Shown one piece after another: positions 4,103-19,428 of a DNA stretch of 64,000 bases (its first letter is position 1; every line of letters begins with the position of its first letter). Origin of the DNA: Bacillota bacterium (GTDB taxonomy: Bacteria; Bacillota; Clostridia; Acetivibrionales; JANLFN01); the NCBI GenBank assembly GCA_030705825.1, contig JAUZPR010000001.1:17772-81771 (forward strand), in the 5' to 3' direction. The notes under the pieces are model-generated. The model had not been told where the DNA came from. It did not search any database and saw only the letters and a list, made by a program, of their open reading frames with translations. The position numbers and the translations under genes are program-made.

Positions 4103-5121
4103 TTGTTCAGCACCTCGATTCCAACTTCATTGGCTTCCAGAAAAGCAACCGCTTCATCAATACTTTTTTCACTACCTGATATCTTGATGACAAGGTTTCC
4201 CACCTGGGTATCCTGTATGTTTTCTATATTTCCAGCCAGAATATTAGCTTCAATATCGCACTTCTTTATCATGCTGGAAATAACAGGCTTGTTGCTGCTG
4301 TTTCCTATAAAAGATGCACGTATTACTCGCTGCTTGTTGTTTTCGGTGTTTATAAAAAAGCTTTTTGCTAATGTTGAAAAAGAATCCTTAAGAAACGATC
4401 TTGAGGTTTCTGTCCGGGGGTTTGCATATATATCCAGAACGTCACCCTTTTCAACTACAGACCCGTTTTCAAGAATGGCTACCCGGCTGCATAACCTTTT
4501 TATCACCTGCATTTCATGAGTAATGACTATTACAGTAATTCCAAACTTTTTGTTTATATCCTTGAGAAGATCAAGTATATACTCAGTAGTGACCGGATCC
4601 AGTGCAGAGGTAGCCTCATCCGAAAGTATAATTTCAGGATTGTTTGCCAGAGCTCTTGCTATACCAACTCTTTGCTTCTGCCCGCCCGAAAGCTGTGCCG
4701 GATATGCATAGGCCTTATCCTTCAAATCCACCAGTTCGAGAAGGTTGTTTACTCTTTGGAAAATTTCATTTTTGGGCAAATGGGAAATTCTCAACGGGAA
4801 AGCAATGTTCTCAAAAACGGTTGAGTTTGACAGAAGATTAAAATGCTGAAAAATCATACCGATTTTTTTACGCGATTCTCGCAGTGAAGCAGGCTTCAGT
4901 CTTGTAATGTCGGTACCTTTTATTAAAATTTCTCCTGAATCGGGTGCTTCAAGCATGTTTATGCATCTTACCAGCGAGGATTTTCCTGCACCGCTCAGGC
5001 CGATTATTCCAAAAATATCTCCATTGTTGATGGATAGGTTTATATCATTTAATGCGATTATTTTTCCGCTATCAGTCTGATAAGTCTTTTTTAGATTTCT
5101 TATTTCAATCAAACCGGCCAC
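4099..5121 (-). CDS. metN: Methionine ABC transporter ATP-binding protein
   Basis: Walker A GLSGAGKS, signature LSGGQKQR, Walker B IILSDEATSALD, and the C-terminal NIL-type domain typical of MetN. The start is GTG 5121 or, better spaced from the GAGGTGG SD, TTG 5112 (MIEIRNLKK). Confidence 0.9.
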   Translation of the reverse strand: MAGLIEIRNLKKTYQTDSGKIIALNDINLSINNGDIFGIIGLSGAGKSSLVRCINMLEAPDSGEILIKGTDITRLKPASLRESRKKIGMIFQHFNLLSNSTVFENIAFPLRISHLPKNEIFQRVNNLLELVDLKDKAYAYPAQLSGGQKQRVGIARALANNPEIILSDEATSALDPVTTEYILDLLKDINKKFGITVIVITHEMQVIKRLCSRVAILENGSVVEKGDVLDIYANPRTETSRSFLKDSFSTLAKSFFINTENNKQRVIRASFIGNSSNKPVISSMIKKCDIEANILAGNIENIQDTQVGNLVIKISGSEKSIDEAVAFLEANEVGIEVLNK

Positions 5122-5184
5122 CTCATTTATGTATATTCTGTGTAAATAAAATCTAATTCCTAGTAAGCATATATGTTTAATAGG

Positions 5185-5214
5185 ATTTTACTCTATAAGG
5201 TAATATGATGTCAA
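5185..5214 (-). promoter_or_regulatory. Putative sigma-A promoter of metNIQ
   Basis: On the minus strand, TTGACA (5214-5209) is followed by an 18-nt spacer and TAAAAT (5190-5185). Confidence 0.5.
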
Positions 5215-5265
5215 TAGTTTGAAGAAAAATATTTGCAAACAAATAGGAATACTAGGAAAAATTTA

Positions 5266-5295
5266 TTGACAGTATATCTTGGGTAATAGTATGAT
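5266..5295 (+). promoter_or_regulatory. Putative sigma-A promoter of the PLP-enzyme operon
   Basis: TTGACA (5266-5271), an 18-nt spacer, then TATGAT (5290-5295). Confidence 0.5.
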
Positions 5296-5395
5296 GTGTA
5301 CAATACATATAGGAATAATAGGAATAACGGGTTAAATATTTAAATAAGAATTGGTATAACTACTATTGAGTTTCATTATAAAGGAAGTGAACCGT

Positions 5396-6529
5396 ATGAA
5401 GATAAGCACGAGATTGGTCCATGGTCATAAGGGGGTTGACAAGGAAACCGGAGCCGTAAGTTTTCCTATATATCAGAGTGCCACATTCAGGCATCCCGGA
5501 CTTAACCAGACTACCGGCTATGATTATTCCAGACTCCAAAATCCGACCAGAGAAGAACTTGAAAATACCATTGCAAGCCTTGAAAACGGGACTACAGGAT
5601 TTGCATTTTCCAGTGGAATGGCAGCCATATCCACAGCTTTGTCTCTTTTTGTACCGGGAGACCATATAATAGTGTCCGACGATTTATATGGAGGTACCTA
5701 TAGATTATTTGAGGAAATGTATAAAAAATACGGTATTGAATTTTCTTATTTGGATACAAGCAATATAGATAATGTTAAAACTGCTGTTAAAAAGAATACA
5801 AAAGCACTTTTTATAGAAACCCCTTCAAATCCTATAATGAAGGTTACAGATATAGCTGCGGCGGCTGAGTTGGCTAGAAGTTCGGGAATACTTACAATTG
5901 TGGACAATACATTTTTGACCCCTTATTATCAAAGACCCATTGAACTGGGAGCAGATATAGTACTGCACAGCGGTACCAAATACCTTGGGGGCCATAATGA
6001 TACCCTGGCCGGGTTAATAGTAGTAAAAAATGAAGAGCTTGCCGCCAGGATAAAGTTGATACAAAAAACAGAGGGGGCTATGCTTGCTCCGTTTGATAGC
6101 TGGCTTATACTGCGCGGTATAAAAACTCTTTCAGTACGGATGGACCGTCAGCAGAAAAATGCCGCAGAGGTTGCAAATTGGCTTAGAAGTAATAATAATG
6201 TGGAAAGGGTCTACTATATCGGTCTTGAAGATCATGAAGGCTATGAAATTTCAAAAAGGCAAGCATCAGGTTTTGGCGCTATGATATCATTTTCTGTGAA
6301 GGATGCTTCATTGGTAGAAAAAGTGCTGGAACGCATCAGGTTGGTTTTATTTGCCGAGAGCCTAGGAGGGGTGGAAAGTCTTATAACCTATCCTATGGTA
6401 CAGACGCATTCTGCCATACCTGCTGAAATGAGAGAAAGGCTTGGAGTTGATGAGAAGCTCCTAAGACTTTCAGTGGGTATAGAAGCAGCTGAAGATATTA
6501 TAGCTGATCTTGAGCAGGCTTTGGAATGA
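5396..6529 (+). CDS. Cys/Met-metabolism PLP-dependent enzyme (cystathionine beta-lyase / gamma-synthase family)
   Basis: YSRLQNPTR, FSSGMAAI, and the HSGTKYLGGH PLP-lysine motif. I placed the start at ATG 5396 (SD AAGGAAG) rather than the track TTG 5366. Confidence 0.85.
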   Translation: MKISTRLVHGHKGVDKETGAVSFPIYQSATFRHPGLNQTTGYDYSRLQNPTREELENTIASLENGTTGFAFSSGMAAISTALSLFVPGDHIIVSDDLYGGTYRLFEEMYKKYGIEFSYLDTSNIDNVKTAVKKNTKALFIETPSNPIMKVTDIAAAAELARSSGILTIVDNTFLTPYYQRPIELGADIVLHSGTKYLGGHNDTLAGLIVVKNEELAARIKLIQKTEGAMLAPFDSWLILRGIKTLSVRMDRQQKNAAEVANWLRSNNNVERVYYIGLEDHEGYEISKRQASGFGAMISFSVKDASLVEKVLERIRLVLFAESLGGVESLITYPMVQTHSAIPAEMRERLGVDEKLLRLSVGIEAAEDIIADLEQALE

Positions 6530-6571
6530 GTAGATTATAACAAAAAGATTTAATATTGGGGTGATTTTGAA

Positions 6572-7705
6572 ATGAAATTCGGGACCAAACTTATTCATAA
6601 CGGAAATGAAATCGATAAGACCACCGGGGCTTTAAGTATACCGGTGTATCAGGTATCTACCTATCATCAGGAGGATATTGACAAGGGACAGGAATTTGAT
6701 TATTCCAGATCCGGCAATCCTACAAGAAAAGCTCTTGAAGATACCATAGCAAAGCTGGAAGGAGGAGACAGGGGCTTCGCATTTTCATCGGGCATGGCTG
6801 CAACCTCCTCGGTTCTGTCAACTTTTTCTTCGGGAGATCACATAATAGTATGTGAAGACGTATATGGCGGCACCTATAGGATAACTACAAACTTTTTCAA
6901 CAGGTTTAAACTTGATATAACTTTTGTTGATGCTTCAGATATAAATGCGATTAAAGGAAGTATAAGAAACAATACTAAAGCACTATTTCTGGAAACTCCA
7001 TCCAATCCTTTAATGAAAATTATAGATTTGAAAAGTGCAGTTGAAATTGCTAAACAGCATGGAATACTAGTAATTGTTGATAATACTTTCATGTCGCCTT
7101 ATCTTCAAAGACCGTTGGAGTTGGGAGCTGATATAGTAGTTCATAGTGCAACCAAATTCATAGGAGGCCACAGCGATGTAATAGGCGGCCTTGCTGCAGT
7201 AAAAGGTGCTGAACTGGCTAAAAGAGTCTATTTTGTTCAGAATGGCTTTGGTGCTGTACTTGGACCTCAGGATTCCTGGCTGTTACTCAGGGGACTCAAA
7301 ACCTTGAAGGTAAGGATGGACTACCAGCAAAATAACGCAAACAGGCTGGCACAATGGCTTAAGACAAATAAGCATGTTAAAAAGGTTTATTATCCGGGGC
7401 TTGAGGAGCACCCTGGACGCAATATTCATATGTCCCAGGCTGACGGCGCCGGGGCGGTTTTATCCTTTGAGACTGTTGATACCGAAATGGCAAAACGTTT
7501 CATGAAGAATGTAAAAATGGCGGCAGTTGCAGTAAGCTTGGGAGGTGTCGAAACTATAGCCTCTTACCCGGTAAAGATGTCCCACGCTTCAATACCCAAG
7601 CCTGAAAGGGAAAGGCTGGGGATTTCGGACAGTCTTATACGTATTTCGGTTGGACTTGAAGAAATAGACGATTTGATTGAGGATTTTGAGAGAGCATTGA
7701 GCTGA
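6572..7705 (+). CDS. Second Cys/Met-metabolism PLP-dependent enzyme (cystathionine gamma-synthase/lyase family paralog)
   Basis: YSRSGNPTR, FSSGMAAT, and the HSATKFIGGH PLP-lysine motif. It is collinear with the preceding paralog. Confidence 0.85.
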   Translation: MKFGTKLIHNGNEIDKTTGALSIPVYQVSTYHQEDIDKGQEFDYSRSGNPTRKALEDTIAKLEGGDRGFAFSSGMAATSSVLSTFSSGDHIIVCEDVYGGTYRITTNFFNRFKLDITFVDASDINAIKGSIRNNTKALFLETPSNPLMKIIDLKSAVEIAKQHGILVIVDNTFMSPYLQRPLELGADIVVHSATKFIGGHSDVIGGLAAVKGAELAKRVYFVQNGFGAVLGPQDSWLLLRGLKTLKVRMDYQQNNANRLAQWLKTNKHVKKVYYPGLEEHPGRNIHMSQADGAGAVLSFETVDTEMAKRFMKNVKMAAVAVSLGGVETIASYPVKMSHASIPKPERERLGISDSLIRISVGLEEIDDLIEDFERALS

Positions 7706-7797
7706 TATTATGGGATACAGAAAAAGAGCAGGGGTTTGCTTGCTCTGACCATAAATATTATCTGTATCCTTTTATTTATACAAATACCTACTAAACC

Positions 7798-7902
7798 TAT
7801 AGGAATAATAAAAATATTTTGAAAATGTATTGACAATAATTTCTTAGGGGGATAAAATAAAAGCATATTAAAACCAAGTAAACAAATAAGAATACTAGGA
7901 AA
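7798..7902 (+). promoter_or_regulatory. cysK promoter with two operator-like motifs
   Basis: TATAGGAATAATA at 7798-7810. TTGACA (7830-7835), a 17-nt spacer, then TAAAAT (7853-7858). AAACAAATAAGAATACTAGGAAA at 7880-7902 matches 5238-5259 at 22 of 23 positions. Confidence 0.6.
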
Positions 7903-7921
7903 TAATTTTGGAGGCGATATT

Positions 7922-8854
7922 ATGTCAAAGGTAGCTAAAAATTTGACCGATTTAATTGGAAACACCCCACTTCTTGAACTTTCAAACTATAATGCGGAAA
8001 ATAAACTTGAAGCAAAGGTAATTGCAAAACTTGAATATTTCAATCCGGCAGGAAGCGTAAAGGACAGGATCGGATACGCAATGATCAAGGATGCAGAGGA
8101 AAAAGGCTTGTTAAAAAAGGATTCTGTAATAATTGAACCTACAAGCGGAAATACAGGTATAGCCCTTGCATTTGTTTCAGCAGCCAAAGGCTACAGATTG
8201 ATACTGACCATGCCTGAAACCTTCAGTATAGAAAGAAGAAATCTTCTCAAGGCATACGGTGCAGAACTGGTACTCACTCCCGGTTCGGAAGGCATGAAGG
8301 GTGCAATTAGGAAAGCTGAAGAACTGGCAGCAGAAATCCCGAATTCGTTTATACCCCAGCAGTTCAAAAATCCCGCTAATCCGGAAATCCATAGAAAAAC
8401 AACAGCAGAGGAAATATGGAGGGATACCGACGGCCAGGTGGATATTATTGTGGCCGGAGCAGGAACTGGAGGAACTATAACAGGTATAAGCGAGGTACTT
8501 AAACAGAAGAAACCCGGTATCCTGTCGGTTGTTGTGGAACCGTTTGATTCCCCAGTAATTTCAGGAGGAAATCCGGGGCCTCATAAAATCCAGGGAATAG
8601 GACCTGGTTTTGTACCTGATGTATTAAACAAGAGTATCCTCGATGAGATTTACAAGGTAAAAAATGAAGAAGCCTTTGAAACTGCAAGAAAACTAGCCAG
8701 AACAGAAGGACTTCTTGTGGGGATATCCTCGGGTGCTGCGGCTTTTGCAGCAACACAGCTTGCCCAGAGACCTGAAAATAAGGGCAAGACAATAGTTGTA
8801 ATTCTTCCGGATACAGGTGAAAGATACCTTTCAACTCCTGTATTTCAGGACTGA
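7922..8854 (+). CDS. cysK: Cysteine synthase A / O-acetylserine sulfhydrylase (PALP family)
   Basis: SVKDR PLP-lysine motif, TSGNTG, and the [10 protein letters not shown] loop. 310 aa. Confidence 0.9.
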
Positions 8855-8885
8855 TAACTAGTAAAAAATTTAATATCATTAAGAC

Positions 8886-8920
8886 ATTAGGGGGAATTAT
8901 TTAATCCCCCTAATATTTTA
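8886..8920 (+). terminator. Rho-independent terminator after cysK
   Basis: ATTAGGGGGA (8886-8895) pairs with TCCCCCTAAT (8905-8914), followed by an AT/T-rich tail. Confidence 0.7.
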
Positions 8921-8961
8921 ACCAGATTCAGGGTAAGGCATTAAGAAAGGAGGCCAAAGCA

Positions 8962-9726
8962 TTGCAAAAATCAATTGAAATACAAAGCAGGGGATTAACA
9001 TTAAGAGGAACATTACATTTACCTGACAACCAAAAGGGAAAAATTCCGGTAATTATTATTTTTCATGGTTTCGCAGGAAATAAAACAGGGCCTCATTTCA
9101 TATTTGTAAGATTATCAAGACTGCTTGAAGCAAAGGAAATTGCAACTGTACGCTTTGATTTTGGCGGTAGCGGTGAAAGTGACGGAAAATTTAAAGAAAT
9201 GACTATCACCGGAGAGCTTGAGGATGCAAAAAACATCCTCAATTATGTAAAAGTTCAAGAGTTTACAGATACCGGCAATATTGGAGTATTAGGCCTTAGT
9301 ATGGGAGGAGCGGTTGCAGGTATGCTGGCTGGTGAAAGAAAGAATGATATAAAAGCATTGTGCTTATGGGCACCTGCCGGCAATATGGGTGAAATCGCAG
9401 TAAATGACTTTATCGGCAGGCAGAACCTGCCAAAGCTTAATGATGATGGCTTTTATGATGTGGAAGGACTGCTTTTGGGAAAAGTGTTTGTGGACGATGC
9501 CGAAAAGCTTGATATATATGGTAAGTCGGCAGTTTTTGATAAAAAAATTCTGATAATTCACGGAGATTCGGATGAGGTTGTAAAACTGGACGCCTCCAAA
9601 AGGTATGTCGAGTATTATGGAAACAGGTCAAAGCTCATAGTCATTGAAGATGCCGATCATACCTTTAACGGAAGAATCTGGGAAGACCAGGTTATAGCCC
9701 ATACTTTGAAATTCTTTGAGTTTTGA
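8962..9726 (+). CDS. Alpha/beta-fold hydrolase
   Basis: HGFAGN oxyanion region, nucleophile elbow GLSMGG, HGDSDEVV and DADHTF (Ser-Asp-His triad). TTG start 8 nt after AAAGGAGG. Confidence 0.75.
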   Translation: MQKSIEIQSRGLTLRGTLHLPDNQKGKIPVIIIFHGFAGNKTGPHFIFVRLSRLLEAKEIATVRFDFGGSGESDGKFKEMTITGELEDAKNILNYVKVQEFTDTGNIGVLGLSMGGAVAGMLAGERKNDIKALCLWAPAGNMGEIAVNDFIGRQNLPKLNDDGFYDVEGLLLGKVFVDDAEKLDIYGKSAVFDKKILIIHGDSDEVVKLDASKRYVEYYGNRSKLIVIEDADHTFNGRIWEDQVIAHTLKFFEF

Positions 9727-9916
9727 ACCAACATTGAAATAAAATGCATATTAATATATAAATGACAGTTTAGGATTTATCCCAGGCTGTTTTACTGTTT
9801 AGCAGATATATCATTCCAATAAATTTTACCATTTGTCTTATTATATCGAATTAAGTAATTATTCCTATAATATATTGTTTGATGTGTTATAAGTTGATAT
9901 AATTTTCTTTGTACTA

Positions 9917-11089
9917 ATGTATCAGGGGGGGATTACTATTAAAAAGTATGTTTATATTAATGGAAATGAAAGAGTTGCTATTGAAAATGTTGAGTTGTTT
10001 CAGGTCTTTTTGAGATCAGGTAAAATAACAAAAGATACGTTTCTCTTCGATGAAGAAATACAAAACTGGGTAAGTGTATTGCAAATTCCTGAATTTGCCA
10101 CGTTTTTTCAATATGCACCAAACAGTCAGCCTTTCTATGGAAATAATCAACAGCAAGGTTTTCCTCAAAATCAGCCTTATCAAGCCAGTTATCAGAACTT
10201 TCAGCCACCAGTTCCTGTTAAGAAAACGCCGCTTTACGTAACAATAGCAATAATTGCAGGTATAGCAGCATTTGTGGCAGTTGGATTCCTGACTGGTCTG
10301 TTCAAAAAGCATACTGACACTACTACTGCTGCTCATATAACTGATATTTTCAGCAGTACGACACAATCTGAAAGCACATCATCGGGCTCTGATTCTTCAG
10401 ATAACAGTAGTTCGTCAAGTAAGGAAATGCGTGCCGTTCAAAAGATGGTTTCGATTATGCAGGATTTGAACAATAATGTACCTATAAGTGAAGAACAATA
10501 CTCTTCATCCGAATACGGTCAGCTGGCTCCGGTGCTCAAAGAATTCCAAAATTATTATATAAAGCTCCAGAAAGAAAGGAACCGGATTCAGGATGAGGTT
10601 ACAAAATTAGATGTAAATTCAATATTTACCGAAGAAAACCTTGGCAATCTTGATAATATAAAGACTACCGAAGATAATCTCAGGAATTATCTTGATGATT
10701 ATAAAACCTATGAACAGAATTATAAGCAGTATACTGCCGAATACAAGGATAATATTATGAAGCTGGATTTACCGGAAGCATCAAAGAATAATTTCCTGCA
10801 GAGTTTCAACAAGAGTAACGACCAGGTTATGGTATTAATGGATAAGTTCTTTACCGCCGAAGAATCCTTTATAAACAATATGATTCAGATTATGACCTTC
10901 CTTGAAGGAAAACAGGGTGAATATGATTTCAGCGGAGGACAGATACAATTTTATTCGGATGATGATGTAAACACATATAACAATTATTATACTGAAATGC
11001 AAAATGCAGCAAACCAGGAAGTTGATATACAGAAACAGATGACTCAAATGTCACAAAAGACACTTGATAATCTTAAAAGTGCACAATAA
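9917..11089 (+). CDS. Membrane-anchored protein with an N-terminal GYF_2-like domain, Q/P-rich linker, one TM, a Ser-rich tract and a coiled-coil ectodomain
   Basis: YVYINGNERVAIENVELFQVFLRSGKITKDTFLFDEEIQNWVSVLQIPEF resembles the GYF_2/DUF4339 pattern. The TM is LYVTIAIIAGIAAFVAVGFLTGLF. The exact start is uncertain. Confidence 0.5.
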   Translation: MYQGGITIKKYVYINGNERVAIENVELFQVFLRSGKITKDTFLFDEEIQNWVSVLQIPEFATFFQYAPNSQPFYGNNQQQGFPQNQPYQASYQNFQPPVPVKKTPLYVTIAIIAGIAAFVAVGFLTGLFKKHTDTTTAAHITDIFSSTTQSESTSSGSDSSDNSSSSSKEMRAVQKMVSIMQDLNNNVPISEEQYSSSEYGQLAPVLKEFQNYYIKLQKERNRIQDEVTKLDVNSIFTEENLGNLDNIKTTEDNLRNYLDDYKTYEQNYKQYTAEYKDNIMKLDLPEASKNNFLQSFNKSNDQVMVLMDKFFTAEESFINNMIQIMTFLEGKQGEYDFSGGQIQFYSDDDVNTYNNYYTEMQNAANQEVDIQKQMTQMSQKTLDNLKSAQ

Positions 11090-11110
11090 GATTTATATAT
11101 TTACTAACAG

Positions 11111-11157
11111 GAAGCCATATGAAGAGTAAGTTCACTTCATACGGCTTCTTTTATTTT
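11111..11157 (+). terminator. Rho-independent terminator after the GYF-domain gene
   Basis: GAAGCCATATGAAG (11111-11124) pairs with CTTCATACGGCTTC (11135-11148), followed by a T-run. Confidence 0.75.
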
Positions 11158-11166
11158 ACATTTTTT

Positions 11167-11195
11167 TTGACAAAAGCTTCCTTTTTTCATAAATA
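11167..11195 (+). promoter_or_regulatory. Putative promoter of the Tad-like operon
   Basis: TTGACA (11167-11172), a 17-nt spacer, then TAAATA (11190-11195). Confidence 0.4.
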
Positions 11196-11239
11196 TATTG
11201 TAAAATAAAATATAATATGTAAAAATAAGGGATATAAGT

Positions 11240-11917
11240 ATGAAAATAGCAGATAATAAAAATGGAAGCATTACGGTTGAAGCTTCGCTGGTAGTGCCGA
11301 TAGTTATATTTTGTATATTTGCAGTAATGTACTTTGCAATACTTCTCTATCAGCAGGTTCATCTTCAGGCTACTGCCGATTTGACCTCGGAAAAGGGAGC
11401 AGAATCCTGGTATAACAGCAAGATAAATATTGAAACAGGAAAGCTGGATATGAAATACTTGGACAATGACGGCTTATACTGGCAGCTGCTGGATTTGAAC
11501 AAGGATAAAAAGCTCAATAAAATTAACAATTTTGTTCTTGCAGGTAAAAATAAGGGCTTGGGAATGCTGGACATGAGCAGTATCCTGGTAAGCCGGATGG
11601 AAAATAGAAATCAAAGGGTAAACGTTGTAATCAAGGATTTTGTTATATATAAAAAACTTGAGGTGTCGATCCGGGACAGGTATGGAATACCGGCTGCAAA
11701 CATACTGCAGGTGTTTGGAAAAGGTGATTCGCTTAACATACCTGAGGCATCTGAGTATGTAATAAGCCAACCCTCTGAATTCATAAGAAATATAGATTTC
11801 GTCGATGACTTGGGGAAGGAAATCGGTAGAAAATATCCCGGTATAGGCAGTACTTTTCAAAAGATAGCAGATACCATAGGAAATATTAAGGGGAAAATTT
11901 CAGAATTCTTTAATTAA
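11240..11917 (+). CDS. TadE-like pseudopilin (class III prepilin-type N-terminus)
   Basis: The N-terminus MKIADNKNG|SITVEASLVVPIVIFCIFAVMYFAILL has Gly, Glu at +5 and a hydrophobic helix. Confidence 0.65.
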   Translation: MKIADNKNGSITVEASLVVPIVIFCIFAVMYFAILLYQQVHLQATADLTSEKGAESWYNSKINIETGKLDMKYLDNDGLYWQLLDLNKDKKLNKINNFVLAGKNKGLGMLDMSSILVSRMENRNQRVNVVIKDFVIYKKLEVSIRDRYGIPAANILQVFGKGDSLNIPEASEYVISQPSEFIRNIDFVDDLGKEIGRKYPGIGSTFQKIADTIGNIKGKISEFFN

Positions 11918-11993
11918 AACTCAACTTTTCCAAGTCAATGAAAGTGTATTTTCAGATATTTTTAATCAAGCTGATTTATACCGGGGGGATAAA

Positions 11994-14363
11994 GTGAAAA
12001 TTTCGAGTCAAAGAGGTCAGATTACAGTTTTCTTATGTTTTATACTGGTGGCGATTCTTATCTTTTCGGGAGTTCTGGTCGACGGATCAAGAGTGGCGGC
12101 TGCCAGAGCCCAGACAAGAAGAGCGGTTTCAGCCAGTGCCGAGTCGGCTCTTTCGTTGTTTGACAGTAAGCTGAAGGACGATTATGGTATTTTTTGCTTA
12201 AACCGAAATGACCAGAATGAATTACAGGAAATTATAAGTGAATATTTGAAAAAGAATTTGATGATAGATGAAAATCCAGGGCAAAAGGGATTTGATCCGT
12301 ATAATTTCCGGATCGAAAGCTTGAATGTATCCCCTCTATATAATTTGACCGAAAATGACGTTGTAAAGAATCAAATACTACAATACATGAAGTACAGGGC
12401 ACCTAAAGCCATTATTGAAGGAATTCTGGACAGGCTTGCAATTGTTAAGGACGGCAGCAATATGGCAGAGGCATATAAAAGAAAATCTAAAATAGATAAG
12501 CTGGCAAGTAAGGTCGCAAAGCTTCAGGAAAAGCTGAAAAAGCTTGTAAATGGTAAAAACGGTGATGGAAAGAATATAAAAACATTTGTCGACGGTTTTA
12601 ATCTTAATGGAGTATGGAATAGTCTGACTGAAAAGTATGCAAGTCTGGCAGACCAGTACAAAAGCCTGGTGCAGGCCAAGAGTGAAATAGACCAAAGTAT
12701 ACAAAGTGCAAGCTTTCAGTTGGATAACGATAGTGACGGCAGCCAGCTTGCTGAGCTTATGAAGCAGTCAGGACAAATTTCGGCACAGATTTCAGCAGTT
12801 TATGAGGATATAAAGAATACATATACGGAACTTAAAATAGACCAGACCGATTCATTTATTGCTCCCAACAATTCATCAATAGATTGTATACAAGAAATAC
12901 TCAAGTTAAAAGATGATTTGACAGCCCAAATCAATGATCTTAAGGATTATTTGGGTAAAACCTTCGGTAGTAGTAATGGAACAGAGTCAGGAGGTTTTGG
13001 AGAATTACTCGGAAAGGACCTTAAAGACATTGAAGATGCTTTGTTTCCCGAGGGTGAAGATATAAAACTAATTGATGGACTTAAGGCGAACTGTGGTGTA
13101 CTTAAAAATGCAGTTTCAAAGCTTGACTTGATAAGTGCAGATTCAGTCGGTTCGGGTAGTGTAAACGGAAGCTATATCCGGCAGGTATTGGACGGAATTG
13201 TCTCAGATTATAAAGGAATTACATACGATTATAAAAATGCAGGACCCGGAAATAACCAGGAGGATACCAGAGAACAGCAGGCAGAGGCGGCGAAAAAAAG
13301 ACTGAACGAGCCCAAAAATGAAGATAAGGAGTTGGGAGAAAATGAAGCCCAGCTTCCATCTCATAAAAAGATTGCTTCCAGGGTATTCAGCGATCAGGAG
13401 GATGGAGAAACCGGCTCGGAAGGTATTGGGGATAATTCCGGTCCTTCAGATGAAACACCGGAGGCTGAGACCAAATATGAAGGAGATATTGGAAATCTTG
13501 GTGATGAAGTAGGGTTTGACGAGGATAGCGGATTTTCAGAAGATGCATTAGGCTTTTTGGGGTCATTCGGGGATTTGCTGGGGAAGGGTATATCACAGCT
13601 TATGGACAATCTTTATATAAATGAATATATAATGGGTACGTTTAAAAATGCAGTGCCTTATATCTTAAGGGACGGTCAACAGGAGAAGGACTTAAACCTT
13701 AGAGGATTAGCCAAAACAGAGAATAAAAGCTATTTTGATTATGAGACTGAATATATACTTAACGGTGCCAAATCCCAGAATACAAATAAAACTATAGTCG
13801 AGGGAGAAATTCTTCTTATCAGGTTTGCTATGGACACACTTCATGTTTATATGGATCCTCAAAAAAAACAACTGGCATTAGGCATCGCTGCTGCGGTGGC
13901 GGGGTGGTGGACCGGCGGACTGGGAATTCCCATTGTGTCAAACCTGATAATGTGTGGTTGGGGAATGGGAGAGGCAATCATAGACCTGAACCATCTGATG
14001 AAAGGTGAATTGGTTCCGTTTTATAAGCTTAAAGGTGATTGGGAACTGAACCTTGGATTGGTGAAGGCTTCAAGTCCCAAGACAGAAAACAAATTGAAGT
14101 TTTCCTATTATGATTATCTAAGATTGTTTCTGCTATTTACAAGTACAGAGAACAAAATAAACAGAATTGAAGACCTGATTCAGCTCAACAGACAGTTGGA
14201 AACCCCGGGGTTTATGATGGGAAACTGTAATACAATGCTTCGGGTGGATGCCGTTATATCAATGAAGTATAACCTTTTGACAGGCCTTTTCTCACCAAAA
14301 TCGAGCAAAACTTCCGACGGCAGGCACAAGTTCAGAGTTGTACTGTATGACGGCTATAAATAA
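11994..14363 (+). CDS. Large TadG-like protein (Tad/pfam13400-like N-terminus, coiled coil, acidic low-complexity region, hydrophobic Gly-rich C-terminal domain)
   Basis: The N-terminus is SSQRG|QITVFLCFILVAILIFSGVLVDGSRVAAARAQ. GTG start after GGGGGG. The acidic tract is EDGETGSEGIGDNSGPSDETPEAE. The C-terminal segment is LGIAAAVAGWWTGGLGIPIVSNLIMCGWGMGEA. Confidence 0.6.
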   Translation: MKISSQRGQITVFLCFILVAILIFSGVLVDGSRVAAARAQTRRAVSASAESALSLFDSKLKDDYGIFCLNRNDQNELQEIISEYLKKNLMIDENPGQKGFDPYNFRIESLNVSPLYNLTENDVVKNQILQYMKYRAPKAIIEGILDRLAIVKDGSNMAEAYKRKSKIDKLASKVAKLQEKLKKLVNGKNGDGKNIKTFVDGFNLNGVWNSLTEKYASLADQYKSLVQAKSEIDQSIQSASFQLDNDSDGSQLAELMKQSGQISAQISAVYEDIKNTYTELKIDQTDSFIAPNNSSIDCIQEILKLKDDLTAQINDLKDYLGKTFGSSNGTESGGFGELLGKDLKDIEDALFPEGEDIKLIDGLKANCGVLKNAVSKLDLISADSVGSGSVNGSYIRQVLDGIVSDYKGITYDYKNAGPGNNQEDTREQQAEAAKKRLNEPKNEDKELGENEAQLPSHKKIASRVFSDQEDGETGSEGIGDNSGPSDETPEAETKYEGDIGNLGDEVGFDEDSGFSEDALGFLGSFGDLLGKGISQLMDNLYINEYIMGTFKNAVPYILRDGQQEKDLNLRGLAKTENKSYFDYETEYILNGAKSQNTNKTIVEGEILLIRFAMDTLHVYMDPQKKQLALGIAAAVAGWWTGGLGIPIVSNLIMCGWGMGEAIIDLNHLMKGELVPFYKLKGDWELNLGLVKASSPKTENKLKFSYYDYLRLFLLFTSTENKINRIEDLIQLNRQLETPGFMMGNCNTMLRVDAVISMKYNLLTGLFSPKSSKTSDGRHKFRVVLYDGYK

Positions 14364-14384
14364 TTTATATTTCGGAGGCTGTAA

Positions 14385-15560
14385 ATGAGGCGAAATCTTG
14401 TCAAGGGCTCGGTAACTGTAGAAGCATCATTGGTACTGCCAATTTTTATCGGTGCTGTACTGACTATAGTCTTTTTAATTAAGCTGGTATTCATTAATGA
14501 AGTGTTTCAGCATGCAATAAACGGAGCAGCCCATGAAATGGCTTCCACAAGCTATATTTATTATATATCCGGAGTAATGGGAATACATGATACAGTCAGA
14601 GACGGTTTGGAAAACGGTACTCAGGACATTAATAACAAAATTTCATCAATATCAGGGTTGGCCGACGGTCTGGAAAACCTGATTGGAAACGGGAATTCCG
14701 AGAACCAGGCCGAAAGTATAGATCAGCTGAAAAATAACTTTAATACCAGTCTTACAAATACAGCCGATGTTATTAATAACCCCTTGAAGTTTCTCAAGGA
14801 TGCAGCATGTCTCATAGCAGGAGGGGCTTTTGATGATTTGAAAAATGAACTGTGTATACCGGTTGTCAAGCTATATATGAAAAAGTACCTTTCCACTCCT
14901 GATATATCCTTTGAAAACAGAATCAAGGGGCTCAATATAGCAGGAGGTGCCGATGGGATTGATCTGAACAGCTCAAGCTTTTTTGAGGATGAAAAATGCA
15001 ATATTGATATTATTGTAAGGTATAAAGTGAATCTTCCCTTTCCCTTCAGAATTTTTAACGGCATAAATGTTGAACAAAGGGCAGTTGAAAGGGCATGGAC
15101 TTATGGAGATAAAGACAACGGTCCGACCGGAAAGGATGAACAGGAGGATGTATGGGCTCTTGGTAATCTGGAGAGGGGCCGGCTGATAAGAGAGAGATTC
15201 GGAGCAAACCTGCCGTTTGACTTTCCAGTTATAGCGGCATTTGACTCGGGAAAGGCTACAATGATAAAAAGCATGGATCTTACAACAGTTTATTATCAGA
15301 GCAGTTTTAATGTTAAGGACAAAATTTTAGACTATATCAATGAATTAAGGAAATTCAACGGCGGAAAGAGGGGCAGTGTTGAAATAGGTAGTACCGAAAT
15401 AACACAAAAGGTACTTAAACTTGTAATCCCGGAAAATGAGCTTAAGCAGGAAACAAATTCTGTGCTGGAGGAGTGCAGAGGAATTGCTGCAGGCTATGGT
15501 ATACAACTGGATATTAATAAGTACCAGACTAAAAAAACAAGTGATGAAAGCGGTGAATAG
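14385..15560 (+). CDS. TadE-like pseudopilin, long form
   Basis: The N-terminus MRRNLVKG|SVTVEASLVLPIFIGAVLTIVFLI has the same G/xxxxE pattern as 11240-11917. Confidence 0.6.
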   Translation: MRRNLVKGSVTVEASLVLPIFIGAVLTIVFLIKLVFINEVFQHAINGAAHEMASTSYIYYISGVMGIHDTVRDGLENGTQDINNKISSISGLADGLENLIGNGNSENQAESIDQLKNNFNTSLTNTADVINNPLKFLKDAACLIAGGAFDDLKNELCIPVVKLYMKKYLSTPDISFENRIKGLNIAGGADGIDLNSSSFFEDEKCNIDIIVRYKVNLPFPFRIFNGINVEQRAVERAWTYGDKDNGPTGKDEQEDVWALGNLERGRLIRERFGANLPFDFPVIAAFDSGKATMIKSMDLTTVYYQSSFNVKDKILDYINELRKFNGGKRGSVEIGSTEITQKVLKLVIPENELKQETNSVLEECRGIAAGYGIQLDINKYQTKKTSDESGE

Positions 15561-15563
15561 AAT

Positions 15564-16193
15564 ATGGAAAGTCTTCTGTTCCCGTTTATGGCAGTTATAT
15601 ATGCAAATCTTCTTTACAAAATAAATCTCATAGATGATTTGAAAAAAACAAGGTATATTAATTGGCTGTTTTCAGGCTTTTACAGCTCAGCAGAAGGTAT
15701 TGCCTGCGAAATTAGTGCTGCATTGTCGGCGGTGCTTTTGTTCAAAAGATATGGTATTACTGCAGAATGCATATTATATGCATTTATGTGCCAGATTCTT
15801 ATTACTGCTGCTATTCTGGAATTCAAAAATGAATTTTCCGCAAGGATAGAATTTATGGCAGCTGTAACAGCTACAGCGGCTTTTTTGATACGGTTGTGGG
15901 GATACGGCATATCCCTTCAGGAATCCATTTTGGGGATATTGGTCTCAGGAATATCCCTTTCTGTAATTTCGCTTCTTACCAAGGGCGGAGTCAATATTAA
16001 AGATATTATTCTCATCTCTTTTTCGGGTTATATTTTGGGGCTGCAGCAATCTCTTGAAGCCCTGCTTACAGCATCTGTCCTGTCTGCCGTGATATCTCTC
16101 GTGGGTATCGTTCGGGGCAGGTATGATAAAAAAAGCTCAATCCCCTTTGTAATTTTGTTTTACATAGGATACCTGTCTGTTCTTTGCATGTAA
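15564..16193 (+). CDS. A24-family prepilin peptidase-like membrane protein (CpaA/TadV-like)
   Basis: Polytopic, 209 aa. IDDLKKTRYINWLF resembles the first Asp box (D-x-R-x-R-x-I-P-N). NIKDIILISFSGYILG resembles the second (GxGDvKLlaalG). Confidence 0.55.
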   Translation: MESLLFPFMAVIYANLLYKINLIDDLKKTRYINWLFSGFYSSAEGIACEISAALSAVLLFKRYGITAECILYAFMCQILITAAILEFKNEFSARIEFMAAVTATAAFLIRLWGYGISLQESILGILVSGISLSVISLLTKGGVNIKDIILISFSGYILGLQQSLEALLTASVLSAVISLVGIVRGRYDKKSSIPFVILFYIGYLSVLCM

Positions 16194-16396
16194 GATACAT
16201 ATGGGATTACATCTCTAATAATTTATTTCTATAAGACTCTCCTTCCCATTCACATAATTTAATTTAAAAAATCATATTTGTTTAATACCATCTATGCTTA
16301 AATTTGGGGGCGCATTTTATATCAAAACTGAATATATTACATTAACAATTATTTTATGTGAAGCTTTTATTTATAAGAATGGAGGGGTGTTTTTAT

Positions 16397-17446
16397 ATGA
16401 GAAGGGGACCTGTATACATACTTATCTGCATAGTTATGATAATTGCGTTTGTTTTTACAGCATGCGGGAAATCTGCTTCCGGTGCCGATACAACCAAGCT
16501 TACTACTGTAAAGGTTGCATTTGATGATGCAGTAACCGAGGCAGGAGTTATTCTGGCCGACAAGCTGGGTTATTTTGAAAAACAAGGGATAAAAATGGAA
16601 TATGTCAGATTCAATTCAGGTTCAGATGAACTATCTGCCATAATTTCAAACCAGGTGGATGTGAGCAGAGGTATTATCAATGCCGCCCTGTTTAATGCCT
16701 CGAGTCAGGGTTTTAATGTAAAAGTGGTTGCTGACGGAGCATATAATATACCGGGAAAGGGTTTTTTCCAAATAGCTCTGAAAAAAGGACTGGGAGAAAA
16801 GGTTAAGGATTTCAAGGATTTGAAGGGCTTGAAAATTGCTATTGCCTCACGGGGCTCCATTAATGAATTGTTTGTGGAAAAAGCTCTCGAAAAAGGCGGA
16901 TTGTCTGAAAAAGATATCAGTTTTGTTGTGGTAGATTCCTTCCCGGATATGCTGACTGCGGTAGCCAACGGTAATGCCGATGCTACCATGCAGCTGGAAC
17001 CTCTTATTACAAAAGGTGTTGATGAAGGAATACTGGAATGGTGGAAAGACCCTGATACATATGCGACAGGCGAAGAAATGTCTGTTTTAATGTACAGCCC
17101 CAACTTAGTGAAGAAGCCTGAGCTGGGTAAGAAATTCATGGTTGCATACCTTAAGGGAGTCAGGGCATATTGTGATGCTCTTGTATATGGTAATAAAGAT
17201 CAGGCTAAAATAGTTGACATTCTTGCCAAAAACACTTCTGTAAATGATCCTGCTACACTTTTAAAAATGAAAACTCCGGGTCTGGAACCCAATGGTAAAC
17301 TGCTTAAGGAAGGTATTGCCTCCGACCAGCAGTGGTATATGAACAAGGGTCTTGTTAAGTCACCGGCTGATATAGGTAAGTTGATTGATGAAAGCTATGC
17401 AAAATATGCAGTAGGAATTCTTGGAGAATATAAGCAGCCAAAATGA
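16397..17446 (+). CDS. ABC transporter substrate-binding lipoprotein (NMT1/SsuA/TauA-like)
   Basis: Start moved to ATG 16397 (SD GGAGGGG). Lipoprotein signal MRRGPVYILICIVMIIAFVFTAC. The gene is followed by a cognate permease and ATPase. Confidence 0.75.
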   Translation: MRRGPVYILICIVMIIAFVFTACGKSASGADTTKLTTVKVAFDDAVTEAGVILADKLGYFEKQGIKMEYVRFNSGSDELSAIISNQVDVSRGIINAALFNASSQGFNVKVVADGAYNIPGKGFFQIALKKGLGEKVKDFKDLKGLKIAIASRGSINELFVEKALEKGGLSEKDISFVVVDSFPDMLTAVANGNADATMQLEPLITKGVDEGILEWWKDPDTYATGEEMSVLMYSPNLVKKPELGKKFMVAYLKGVRAYCDALVYGNKDQAKIVDILAKNTSVNDPATLLKMKTPGLEPNGKLLKEGIASDQQWYMNKGLVKSPADIGKLIDESYAKYAVGILGEYKQPK

Positions 17447-17456
17447 GGGATAGACA

Positions 17457-18275
17457 ATGATTACGGAGAAGAAATTGCAGCTTCAACAAAAACATAAAAT
17501 CAAACATACCAATGGATTGGATTCAGTAGCAGCAAGAAGAGTACTTTCAATAGTATCTCCGTTTGCTCTGCTTTTGATATGGGAGCTCCTGGTCAGAGTT
17601 CACCTTTTGGACAGCAGGTTCTTTCCTGCTCCCTCCAAGGTACTTTCAACGCTATTTGAAATGGCCAGGAACGGTATTTTATTCTCTGATATTTGGGTAA
17701 GTCTTACCAGGATTATGGGGGGATTTTTACTTGGAGCTGTTCCTGGACTGCTGCTGGGGCTGACAATGGGATTGTTCCCGACAGTCAAGGCAGTATTCGA
17801 TCCGCTTGTGGCATCGACCTATCCTATACCAAAGCTGGCTTTAATGCCTTTGATAATGATAATTTTCGGCTTGACTGAATTTGAAAAAATGATTGTAATT
17901 GCCCTGGGAACCTTCTTTCCCGTACTTATGAACACAGTATCGGGAGTTGTCAATATCAACAAGATATACTGGGACGTCGCAAAAAACTATGGTGCTACCA
18001 GAAAACGTTTTTATCTTACAGTTGCCTTACCCGGTGCGCTGCCAACTATTTTTACCGGTATAAAGCTGGGTATGGGAATGGCCCTCCTTTTAATTGTGGC
18101 AGCAGAGATGAATGGCGCTACCCAGGGTATTGGTTACAGGATATGGGAATCATACTCCATATTTAACATTCCTGAGATGTTTGTTTCATTTATAGTTATG
18201 TCTTTGTTAGGATATATTTTTACTATAATTCTGGATGAAGTGGAGCACCTGTTTGTTCCATGGAGGCGTGATTAG
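17457..18275 (+). CDS. ABC transporter permease (SsuC/TauC-type)
   Basis: Six predicted TM segments and a binding-protein-dependent transport signature region (GATRKRFYLTVALPGALPTIFTGIKLG). Confidence 0.8.
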   Translation: MITEKKLQLQQKHKIKHTNGLDSVAARRVLSIVSPFALLLIWELLVRVHLLDSRFFPAPSKVLSTLFEMARNGILFSDIWVSLTRIMGGFLLGAVPGLLLGLTMGLFPTVKAVFDPLVASTYPIPKLALMPLIMIIFGLTEFEKMIVIALGTFFPVLMNTVSGVVNINKIYWDVAKNYGATRKRFYLTVALPGALPTIFTGIKLGMGMALLLIVAAEMNGATQGIGYRIWESYSIFNIPEMFVSFIVMSLLGYIFTIILDEVEHLFVPWRRD

Positions 18276-18289
18276 GAGAGGGATGCAGT

Positions 18290-19114
18290 ATGAGTAGAGC
18301 ATATGTGATGGAGGATATTATAGCAGAGACTGTTGAAAGCAGTGCAGCTAAAAATGTAAAAATTGAGATGGATAGTCTTGCAAAAAAATTTTTGGTTAGA
18401 AAAAAAGAAATAGTGGCATTTCATAATGTAAGCTTGAAAATACATGAGGGTGAGTTCTGGTGCTTTGTCGGACCAAGCGGGTGTGGAAAAACTACGCTGC
18501 TGAGAGTATTGGCAGGATTGGAGACCCCAACTTCAGGTACGCTTGCAATACATAGAAACAACCCTGAGAAGCCTTTAAACTCCATGGTGTTTCAGGAATA
18601 TGCCATATTTCCGTGGATGACTGTCTGGGATAATATTGCATACGGACTTAAAAACAGAAAGGTTGAACAGGCCATAATCCAGAGAAATGTATCTGAATAT
18701 GTTGAGAAAATGGGACTTCAAAAATTCGTTAAAGCCTATCCGCACCAACTTTCAGGAGGCATGAAGCAAAGGGTAAGTATCGCAAGGGCATTTGCCAACG
18801 ATGCTGAGATACTACTTATGGATGAACCCTTTGCTTCTCTTGATGAACAGAATAGAATGATTCTGCAGCAGGAGCTTCTTCAGATTTGGGAAAATAATAA
18901 AAAGACAGTGGTTTTTATTACACACAGTATAGGAGAGGCAATCTTTCTGTCTGACCATATAATGGTTATGACAGGCCATCCAGGAGAGATTAAGGACGTA
19001 CTTGATGTTAAGCTTCCAAGGCCCAGAAATATGACGGAATTGCGTTCAAAACCGGTATTCAACATACTTTTTTCAAATATATGGTCGGAAATCAAGGAAG
19101 AAGTTACCAGATAA
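18290..19114 (+). CDS. ABC transporter ATP-binding protein (SsuB/TauB-type)
   Basis: Walker A GPSGCGKTT, signature LSGGMKQR, Walker B ILLMDEPFASLD. Confidence 0.85.
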   Translation: MSRAYVMEDIIAETVESSAAKNVKIEMDSLAKKFLVRKKEIVAFHNVSLKIHEGEFWCFVGPSGCGKTTLLRVLAGLETPTSGTLAIHRNNPEKPLNSMVFQEYAIFPWMTVWDNIAYGLKNRKVEQAIIQRNVSEYVEKMGLQKFVKAYPHQLSGGMKQRVSIARAFANDAEILLMDEPFASLDEQNRMILQQELLQIWENNKKTVVFITHSIGEAIFLSDHIMVMTGHPGEIKDVLDVKLPRPRNMTELRSKPVFNILFSNIWSEIKEEVTR

Positions 19115-19248
19115 AAAAGCAAAAACAAGTACAATCAAAAGTTAAGTAATTTGTTATAACAATGGCACTTAAAACAAATAATAAAATTAGGAATATCAAA
19201 ACCTTTTGGTGTTTATGGATATTTAAAATATGTACGGGAGATGATGCT

Positions 19249-19428
19249 TTGAATAGGGAAAGAGCAAAAGAAATAATGGAATCCCAGGGAATCATACAGG
19301 TACTGTACGGGAGTTCACCTGTTTGGATAGAGGATTTAAATGGTGATAACGCCCAGGTATCCTATATCGGCTCTAATAACAGAATACAAGTACCTCTGAA
19401 TAAATTGAATGAGACCCATCCTATGTAG
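19249..19428 (+). CDS. sspH: Small acid-soluble spore protein, SspH family
   Basis: MNRERAKEIMESQGIIQVLYGSSPVWIEDLNGDNAQVSY matches the SspH pattern (RAKEIxES...V.Y.G.PV.I). The in-frame TTG at 19249 gives the family-typical ~59 aa, so the track ATG 19162 extension is unlikely. Confidence 0.7.
   Translation: MNRERAKEIMESQGIIQVLYGSSPVWIEDLNGDNAQVSYIGSNNRIQVPLNKLNETHPM

Follow-up and report, generated by a model that had tools for sequence, protein, structure and literature searches.

A motor-less cassette of Tad-type minor pilins in Clostridia: a candidate tip module served in trans

A 64,000-nucleotide stretch of contig JAUZPR010000001.1 (assembly GCA_030705825.1, positions 17,772 to 81,771), from a member of the Bacillota placed in the Clostridia, carries a cassette of four genes that resemble the accessory part of a tad (type IVc) pilus locus. 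The whole of this 64-kb stretch is called the window here, and the genes are called G1 to G4. They are co-directional and tightly packed, with 76, 21 and 3 nt in the gaps G1/G2, G2/G3 and G3/G4. Three of them encode proteins with pilin-like N-termini, the fourth encodes a relative of the A24 prepilin peptidases, and no pilus motor is encoded beside them. Tad pili are poorly understood in monoderms, and the view of TadE-, TadF- and TadG-type proteins as pilus tips that can be exchanged is recent. What might such a cassette do apart from a motor?

Tad-type subunits encoded without a motor

G1 (11240-11917, + strand) encodes a TadE-like minor pilin or pseudopilin of 225 aa, and G3 (14385-15560, + strand) a TadE-like minor pilin of 391 aa. 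Their leaders read NG/SITVEAS and KG/SVTVEAS, with cleavage (slash) predicted after Gly9 in G1 and Gly8 in G3. This places Glu14 and Glu13, respectively, at position +5. An earlier note on this DNA had recognized the class III prepilin pattern in both proteins, and the leaders confirm it. In profile searches, G1 matches the Pfam TadE model (PF07811) with 32.5 bits, above the gathering cut-off of 22.9. G3 falls just under it with 19.3 bits, and many G3 homologues carry a precomputed PF07811. When the six frames of the 64 kb are scanned for G-x4-[E/D] with a hydrophobic helix behind it, G1 and G3 are the sole matches. All 63 G3 sequences that were aligned have Gly-1, Thr+3 and Glu+5 (motif KG[SA]xT[VL]EA), and KGSxTVEA is visibly kept in nearly all listed G1 homologues, including those of the motor-less clade described below. 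As judged from sequence, G1 and G3 are TadE-type prepilins. A scan of five proteins against NCBIfam gave no significant match.

The large subunit G2 (11994-14363, + strand; 789 aa) starts with GTG after a GGGGGG ribosome-binding site. Its N-terminus reads RG/QITVF after Gly8 and has no Glu at +5. Residues 8-49 match the Pfam Tad model (PF13400) with 23.7 bits, marginally above the cut-off of 22.3, and several homologues carry PF13400. Together with the pilin-like N-terminal helix, this match sustains the earlier description of the protein as TadG-like. Residues 531-756 (nt 13584-14261) are a DUF5702 domain (PF18960, 154.3 bits, E 4e-45), and NCBI labels an identical protein 'DUF5702 domain-containing protein'. 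The NCBI entries identical to G2 and to G3 (locus tag Q8920_00165 for G3) come from a 'Bacillota bacterium' MAG, where they lie on a contig of 93.7 kb. An AlphaFold2 (AF2) model with a predicted local distance difference test score (pLDDT) of 77 has an N-terminal helix of 49 residues, a small sheet and about 240 residues of coiled coil. These are followed by an acidic disordered linker (about 415-511) and the helical DUF5702 domain, which contains a Gly-rich hydrophobic hairpin. A Foldseek search of the model against the PDB returned nothing at E <= 0.001, coiled-coil noise alone, and no solved relative. A literature search on DUF5702 likewise found nothing.

Genes for CpaF, TadB/C, TadZ and Flp are missing from the 64-kb window, as judged by Pfam scans of 30 large open reading frames (ORFs) and by tblastn. 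With 17 CpaF and 34 TadB/C sequences, TadZ and Flp from related loci as queries, tblastn of the window gave marginal noise only. The two approaches agree with the earlier statement that the window holds no Flp pilin, no TadA/CpaF ATPase, no TadB/TadC platform and no TadZ. For the 30 large ORFs, Pfam indicates housekeeping functions, among them a penicillin-binding protein, methionine and cysteine metabolism, ATP-binding cassette (ABC) transporters, Fe-hydrogenase and NADH dehydrogenase-like proteins, a two-component system, glycolysis and a phosphorylase. A tad locus lying just outside the operon is ruled out by these flanks and by a strong upstream terminator (see below).

The context of the cassette in other genomes was surveyed by a pattern and tblastn scan with one genome per species. 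This gave 280 relatives of G2, the best 77 loci of which (labelled L001 and so on) were analysed with 10 kb in view on each side of the cassette, using our own ORF calling and clustering. Seventeen of the 77 loci, from Wukongibacter, Paramaledivibacter, Alkaliphilus and several metagenome-assembled genomes (MAGs), have motor genes and are called type A; their G2 is 28-34% identical to that of the window. The type-A order is a ParA/TadZ-like gene, a 412-aa CpaF, two TadB/C proteins of about 290 aa, a 67-aa Flp (G/MSTVE), G1-G2-G3(-G4), FHA and PP2C. Therefore, because the same block directly follows tadZ-cpaF-tadB-tadC-flp in 17 more distant Clostridia, the cassette corresponds to the distal half of a Tad locus. 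Many type-A loci also have a second short A24 peptidase. This paralogue is about 173 aa long and lies elsewhere in the locus, and the G4 type, with its N-terminal extension, directly follows the minor pilins; examples of such pairs are 13413-14051 and 17733-18254 in L043, and 14238-14846 and 3629-4177 in L071.

Type B accounts for 39 of the 77 loci and has no motor. All of its members are MAGs labelled Oscillospiraceae, Hungateiclostridiaceae, Acetivibrionales or Clostridia, and their G2 is 36-43% identical to that of the window. Here the order is a DacB-like carboxypeptidase (Peptidase_S11), a B12/radical S-adenosylmethionine (SAM) protein (DUF4080), G1-G2-G3, a TrpB-like or PolX gene and PrkA-YhbH-SpoVR. 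This fixed position is seen, for example, in L079 (3928-11146), L036 and L015. The genes prkA, yhbH and spoVR belong to sporulation regulons in Bacillus, and the type-B synteny alone hints at a role of the cassette related to sporulation. The window type (the window, L001-L003 and L082/L083) consists of one or two GYF/DUF3053-like genes, G1-G4 and then sspH and DRTGG/hydrogenase genes.

Neither a motor nor flp occurs within 10 kb of the cassette in 42 related loci. A small Flp-like ORF is present in all 17 type-A loci, and a scan of 42 type-B and window-type loci for the Flp motif gave 10 matches, none of which lies next to G1. In a neighbour-joining tree of DUF5702, the motor-less loci of type B and the window type form one clade nested within type A, with the window type inside type B, beside L004. 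This clade comprises about 42 species, the source species included, and the branching of this distance tree suggests that detachment happened once, long ago. Some loci with motors and some without have a 'long-G2' variant (1,000-1,140 aa). One of the MAGs, CAYPCH01, has a complete Tad locus with a 1,124-aa G2 (L074) and also a second, motor-less G1-G2 locus (L078). The latter adjoins an ABC transporter and a LysM/M23 peptidase gene.

Head domain, peptidase homologue and control region

The C-terminal part of G3 was overlooked in the earlier note. Residues 273-360 match the Pfam model CDI_toxin_EC869_like (PF21111) with 35.2 bits (cut-off 27), and in phmmer searches residues 256-360 align to CdiA-CT from two sources, Yersinia pseudotuberculosis YPIII (4ZQU, E 0.007) and E. 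coli EC869 (4G6U). This head domain, with the CdiA-CT EC869 nuclease fold, covers residues about 256-380 (nt 15150-15524, + strand). The AF2 model of G3 has a mean pLDDT of 78, rising to >90 in the C-terminal domain. Foldseek aligns it to 4g6u_A with E 8e-8 and a root-mean-square deviation of 1.8 A over 132 columns, and to 4zqu_A with E 2e-6 and a target-normalised template modelling (TM) score of 0.78. A literature search found nothing linking EC869 with a pilin.

The catalytic residues of the EC869 toxin, which we take to be E177, D198, S209 and K211, map to R269, A284, M293 and K295 of G3 in the 4G6U alignment, so that the Lys alone is retained. Among the 63 G3 homologues, this RAMK pattern is found in 24 of 34 type-B and all four window-type proteins, or 28 of 38 clade members. 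Around the lost catalytic positions the motif FPVIA.F..G.A.MIKSMDL is strongly conserved in the clade, which suggests that a binding function has been retained. A search with the head domain alone gave 1,197 cluster representatives, 423 of them at E <= 1e-10. The majority are 300-430 aa long, start with a prepilin N-terminus, end in this domain and have degenerate catalytic residues. Others are 2,000-aa toxins or Rhs-type C-terminal fragments that are 35-40% identical and have the EDSK set intact. On this sequence evidence, the G3 head is a fold common to polymorphic toxins that is used as a non-catalytic head domain.

Five of the G3 homologues still have all four residues of the E/D/S/K set. 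Three are from type-A loci (L044, L063 and L065) and the others are from L048 and L067; an example is FPVIDIYDEKTKTGTSIKS. The last two lie on short contigs on which G4 is seen, along with FHA and PP2C genes in L048, and no motor genes. An immunity-like gene follows none of the five. A Tad minor pilin with an active DNase head may exist in the organisms that bear these residues. In the window, no other small ORF that could be a cognate immunity gene fits between G3 and G4, which are 3 nt apart. PADLOC gave no match to a defence or toxin model, and the reading as a defence system was therefore dropped.

G4 (15564-16193, + strand) encodes a polytopic membrane protein of 209 aa with four to five hydrophobic segments, a degenerate A24 paralogue. 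It had earlier been described as a polytopic protein with two A24-peptidase-like Asp boxes, and the peptidase part of this is not confirmed. Against Peptidase_A24 (PF01478) it scores 12.3 bits (E 0.24), below the cut-off of 26.5. In an alignment of 22 members, 19 homologues pass the Pfam model and the window protein does not; the other two that fail are presumably those of L001 and L003. The column of the first catalytic Asp, within D[IV]K..IPN in type A, holds Glu86 in the window (ILE86FKN; nt 15819-15821) and also Glu in L001 and L003. The second motif, G.GD.KL in type A, has become N-I-K-D147 in the window (Asp at nt 16002-16004) and L-S-L-D in L001 and L003. D147 thus retains the second Asp, but the GxGD context is gone. 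The C-terminal PFAPF of type A reads PFVILF in the window and PSLIYI in L001 and L003. D24/D25 ('NLIDDLKK'), probably one of the two boxes noted earlier, lie in a variable, non-conserved N-terminal extension.

Nevertheless, the ancestry of G4 can be traced. Both phmmer and blastp group it with canonical A24 genes that occupy the same locus position, and sister lineages are intact there: L004 has D..IPD, GAGD and PFTPF, and L081 has a precomputed PF01478. Sequence and position together indicate that G4 descends from the A24 peptidase whose gene immediately follows those of the minor pilins where a Tad locus is complete. The L081 locus (4769-10768) belongs to a lineage between the window type and type B. 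Beyond its cassette, which has an intact A24 gene, comes an ORF of about 2,000 aa for which no domain is recorded. By tblastn, G4 is absent from most type-B loci. The two Asp residues of A24 peptidases are universally conserved and critical (PMC10191384). With its catalytic signature degenerate, the label of prepilin peptidase is not supported for G4 in this lineage. It is better regarded as an A24 paralogue that selection maintains but whose catalysis is doubtful, and it probably no longer processes pilins.

Selection on the cassette was assessed from close relatives. Between the window and L001 the proteins are 41% (G1), 51% (G2), 55% (G3) and 30% (G4) identical, whereas the housekeeping proteins on its flanks share 76-91%, which points to rapid evolution of the cassette. 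All four genes are under purifying selection. The ratio of nonsynonymous to synonymous substitution rates (dN/dS) between L001 and L003, at a dS of 0.7-1.0, is 0.10 for G1, 0.087 for G2, 0.147 for G3 and 0.19 for G4, compared with 0.02 for two housekeeping genes.

Upstream of G1 lies the intrinsic terminator of the preceding gene (11109-11158, + strand), a hairpin at 11109-11150 followed by a U-tract. Its RNA fold has a dG of -18.9 kcal/mol (z -6.2), which none of 200 shuffles equals, and a counterpart is present in L001 and L003. This strong terminator isolates the cassette from the gene at 9917-11089. No terminator-like structure was found 3' of G4 by RNA folding. Between the terminator and G1 is a promoter-like region (11184-11229, + strand) with a conserved TGTAAAAT at 11199-11206 and a second element, ATGTAAAAAT, at 11217-11226. 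TGTAAAAT resembles an extended -10, TAAAAT hexamers lie at 11201-11206 and 11206-11211, and a promoter scan upstream of G1 matches TTTTCA-N16-TAAAAT. About 30 nt around TGTAAAAT are near-identical in the window, L001 and L003, although the proteins encoded downstream are merely 41-55% identical. The corresponding A/T-rich element of L001 is at about 9270-9320. Furthermore, TGTWWWAT is enriched 14-fold 5' of G1 in 37 motor-less loci (type B and window type), often doubled with about 18-20 nt between the copies. The pair may consist of an extended -10 promoter and an operator for some regulator. The earlier proposal of an operon with its own promoter after a terminator holds for the terminator and the tight, co-directional genes. 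Its TTGACA at 11168 is not conserved in relatives, whereas TGTAAAAT is.

The gene upstream of the terminator (9917-11089) had been called a GYF-domain gene, but that match is weak (E 0.024) and DUF3053 passes instead (27.4 bits). The membrane protein that it encodes combines a weak N-terminal GYF_2 match with a Q/P-rich linker, a single transmembrane helix, a stretch rich in Ser and a region similar to DUF3053. Its homologues evolve fast (32-35% identity); L001 has two copies (6535-7824 and 8160-9200), and in L074 a homologue is the first gene, upstream of the complete Tad locus. A functional link between this gene and the cassette is possible. Downstream of the cassette, an NMT1/THI5-type ABC importer (binding protein, permease and ATPase) occupies 16358-19114 and is followed by an ORF for an SspH-like small acid-soluble spore protein (19162-19428). 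The source organism is probably a spore-former. The importer is missing at the syntenic position in L001-L003 and L082, where sspH directly follows the cassette, so it is a lineage-specific insertion or loss. A mobile element or island was considered and ruled out: the GC content equals that of the flanks, the region is syntenic with relatives and no integrase is nearby.

Possible roles of the cassette

We consider it moderately probable that the cassette is the minor-pilin (tip/priming) module of a clostridial Tad (type IVc) pilus, detached from its motor genes and served in trans. Assembly of type IV filaments starts from a tip complex of minor pilins. A subunit without Glu5 caps this complex, and every subunit below docks through its Glu5, which pairs with the N-terminus of its upper neighbour (PMC10191384). 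The cassette fits this scheme, with G2 as a cap that has no Glu5 and G1 and G3 beneath, and a trans-acting tip or priming module is therefore rated the likeliest explanation. An active prepilin peptidase would trim the short leaders of G1, G3 and perhaps G2, and the three N-terminal helices would then bundle as a heterotrimer. G2 would cap it, and the Glu+5 of G1 and G3 would pair with the free N-terminus of a neighbouring subunit. The heterotrimer would prime and cap a filament whose ATPase, platform and major pilin have their genes in another part of the genome. Finally, the DUF5702 and EC869-fold domains would be displayed at the tip as binding modules, not enzymes.

Where would the peptidase come from? 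In the window lineage, leader cleavage would fall to another peptidase and G4 may serve as a partner without catalysis. In most of the motor-less clade G4 is absent while the cleavage motif is kept, so these organisms must draw on a peptidase from another locus. There is also a counterpart to the arrangement. Motor-only tad-like loci without any prepilin gene have been described in several Clostridia (PMC3244431), and this is the complementary arrangement expected from a tip module that acts in trans. The earlier note had left the choice between accessory subunits for a tad locus elsewhere and a stand-alone set. The former is now better supported, by the 17 complete loci with the same block, the conserved leaders, the two loci of CAYPCH01 and the precedent in Myxococcus (see below).

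Several observations do not sit easily with a tip module served in trans. In the 64 kb seen of this genome, no motor, platform, Flp or intact peptidase is in evidence, and the sole linked peptidase-like gene of the window lineage looks inactive. The co-occurrence in CAYPCH01 comes from a metagenomic bin and concerns the 'long-G2' subtype, not that of the window. G2 is mostly coiled coil, unlike characterised TadG or the heads of the Myxococcus homologue KilN. The separation is ancient and clade-wide, with a conserved promoter-like element of its own, and this would also fit a function independent of a pilus.

What if the cassette never meets a motor? G1-G3 might then form a stand-alone envelope complex, a prepilin-like, membrane-anchored stump or trimer that is perhaps linked to sporulation, with G4 as a dedicated processing or chaperoning partner. 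This is rather unlikely. In its favour are the lack of a motor or flp gene, both within 10 kb in the 42 related loci and in the window, the conserved promoter-like element, the fixed place in type B between the dacB-like/radical-SAM genes and prkA-yhbH-spoVR, the proximity of sspH in the window group and a G4 that selection has kept despite the lost A24 signature. However, an invariant Glu+5 in the membrane helix is hard to explain without docking of the filament type. An unextended complex would sit buried in the thick Gram-positive wall, and the link to sporulation is one of synteny alone. Moreover, most of the clade has no G4, so processing relies on a peptidase elsewhere in any case. A more elaborate form of this idea, which we regard as improbable, is a motor-independent envelope device in a large clade of spore-forming Clostridia, in which a membrane-anchored trimer would display a dead nuclease fold and a DUF5702 head, with the window G4 as a pseudo-peptidase. 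The trimer would assemble through Glu5/N-terminal contacts. The nuclease fold would be exapted, possibly as a binder of nucleic acid or another ligand, and G4, with Glu/Asp in place of Asp/Asp and no GxGD, would be a non-catalytic handler of prepilin helices. The motor-linked relatives with intact E/D/S/K would have Tad pili tipped with an active DNase.

The losses in G4 and in the G3 nuclease residues, together with the low identity of the cassette (30-55%) next to its flanks (76-91%), could be signs of a Tad locus that lost its motor and is now heading towards pseudogenes. Such a decaying remnant is very improbable. The four reading frames are intact, the block is found in about 42 species with invariant leader motifs, and the head motif (FPVIA..F..G.A.MIKSMDL) is highly conserved in the clade. 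Purifying selection on all four genes leads to its rejection, and the dN/dS values of 0.09-0.19 largely refute a pseudogene remnant. Hardly credible at all is toxin delivery, in which G3 would be an active EC869-type DNase presented against neighbouring cells by a pilus-like device. It is suggested by the PF21111 match, by the Foldseek matches to CdiA-CT of EC869 and YPIII, by the 35-40% identity to the C-termini of 2,000-aa toxins and Rhs-type fragments and by the five relatives with the full E/D/S/K set, three of them in motor-linked loci. However, the window protein has R269, A284, M293 and K295 at these positions, and RAMK recurs in 28 of 38 clade members. In addition, the 3 nt between G3 and G4 hold no candidate immunity gene, and PADLOC found no defence or toxin match. 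An active toxin was rejected on account of the lost catalytic residues.

The locus has several wider implications. Throughout a clostridial clade, a module of the tip type can be maintained away from its motor, under a conserved promoter-like element that belongs to it. DUF5702 is identified as the TadG-like large subunit of clostridial Tad systems. A toxin-nuclease fold has been recruited as a pilin head domain, with its residues complete in a few systems linked to a motor and lost in those that are detached. G4, as a natural degenerate A24 paralogue under selection, is a candidate pseudo-enzyme for studying substrate recognition by prepilin peptidases. There is also a lesson for annotation: motor-less genes of the 'TadE/TadG family' are a conserved arrangement and not an assembly artefact.

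Relation to known systems

The C-terminal domain of G3 has the same fold as CdiA-CT of EC869 and YPIII (4G6U and 4ZQU) and belongs to the same sequence family (PF21111). It differs in being fused to a prepilin N-terminus, not to CdiA, Rhs or another delivery domain, and in having no immunity gene. As a whole, the cassette resembles tadE-tadF-tadG-tadV of Aggregatibacter and cpaJ-K-L of Caulobacter. Shared features are two pseudopilins whose class III leaders have Gly-1 and Glu+5, a larger protein of the TadG type with a PF13400 N-terminus and a short A24 homologue without a methylase domain. However, the canonical tad genes form one operon with flp, tadA, tadB, tadC and tadZ, whereas the cassette is a separate unit. 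Furthermore, G2 has DUF5702 and not the domains of proteobacterial TadG, and G4 is without the two-Asp signature.

A precedent for tips encoded apart from the motor, studied by experiment, is the Kil system of Myxococcus xanthus. KilL, KilM and KilN are homologues of TadE, TadF and TadG, for which heterotrimeric Tips are predicted (Herrou et al., 2025; PMC12075869). There are four Tip clusters at distinct loci, and one alone lies within the kil motor cluster. Of the four Tips, Tip2, Tip3 and Tip4 depend on the short peptidase KilA, which does not serve the major pilin (PMC12075869). In the same way, the clostridial cassette has two small TadE/F-like prepilins and a large TadG-like subunit with a distal domain, encoded apart from a motor. 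A peptidase that serves tips and not the major pilin parallels the two A24 paralogues of complete clostridial loci. Nevertheless, the cassette is not a member of the Kil Tips at the sequence level; the common parts are the TadE and Tad N-terminal motifs only. The host here is a monoderm and probable spore-former, whereas Myxococcus is a diderm predator, and the heads here are DUF5702 with coiled coils and a dead EC869 nuclease fold. Moreover, the Myxococcus motor is known and has one tip cluster in its own locus, whereas no motor is seen beside the clostridial cassette and its linked peptidase is degenerate.

Further counterparts are the complete clostridial Tad loci of Wukongibacter baidiensis (CP138202, L049), Paramaledivibacter caminithermalis (L043) and Alkaliphilus serpentinus (L071). 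Some G3 proteins of such loci keep E/D/S/K, whereas that of the window does not. G1-G2-G3-G4 are orthologous, in the same order and with the same leader motifs. Unlike the cassette of the window, the block there stands after tadZ-cpaF-tadB-tadC-flp and is followed by FHA and PP2C, and its G4 has the canonical D...IPN, GxGD and PFAPF.

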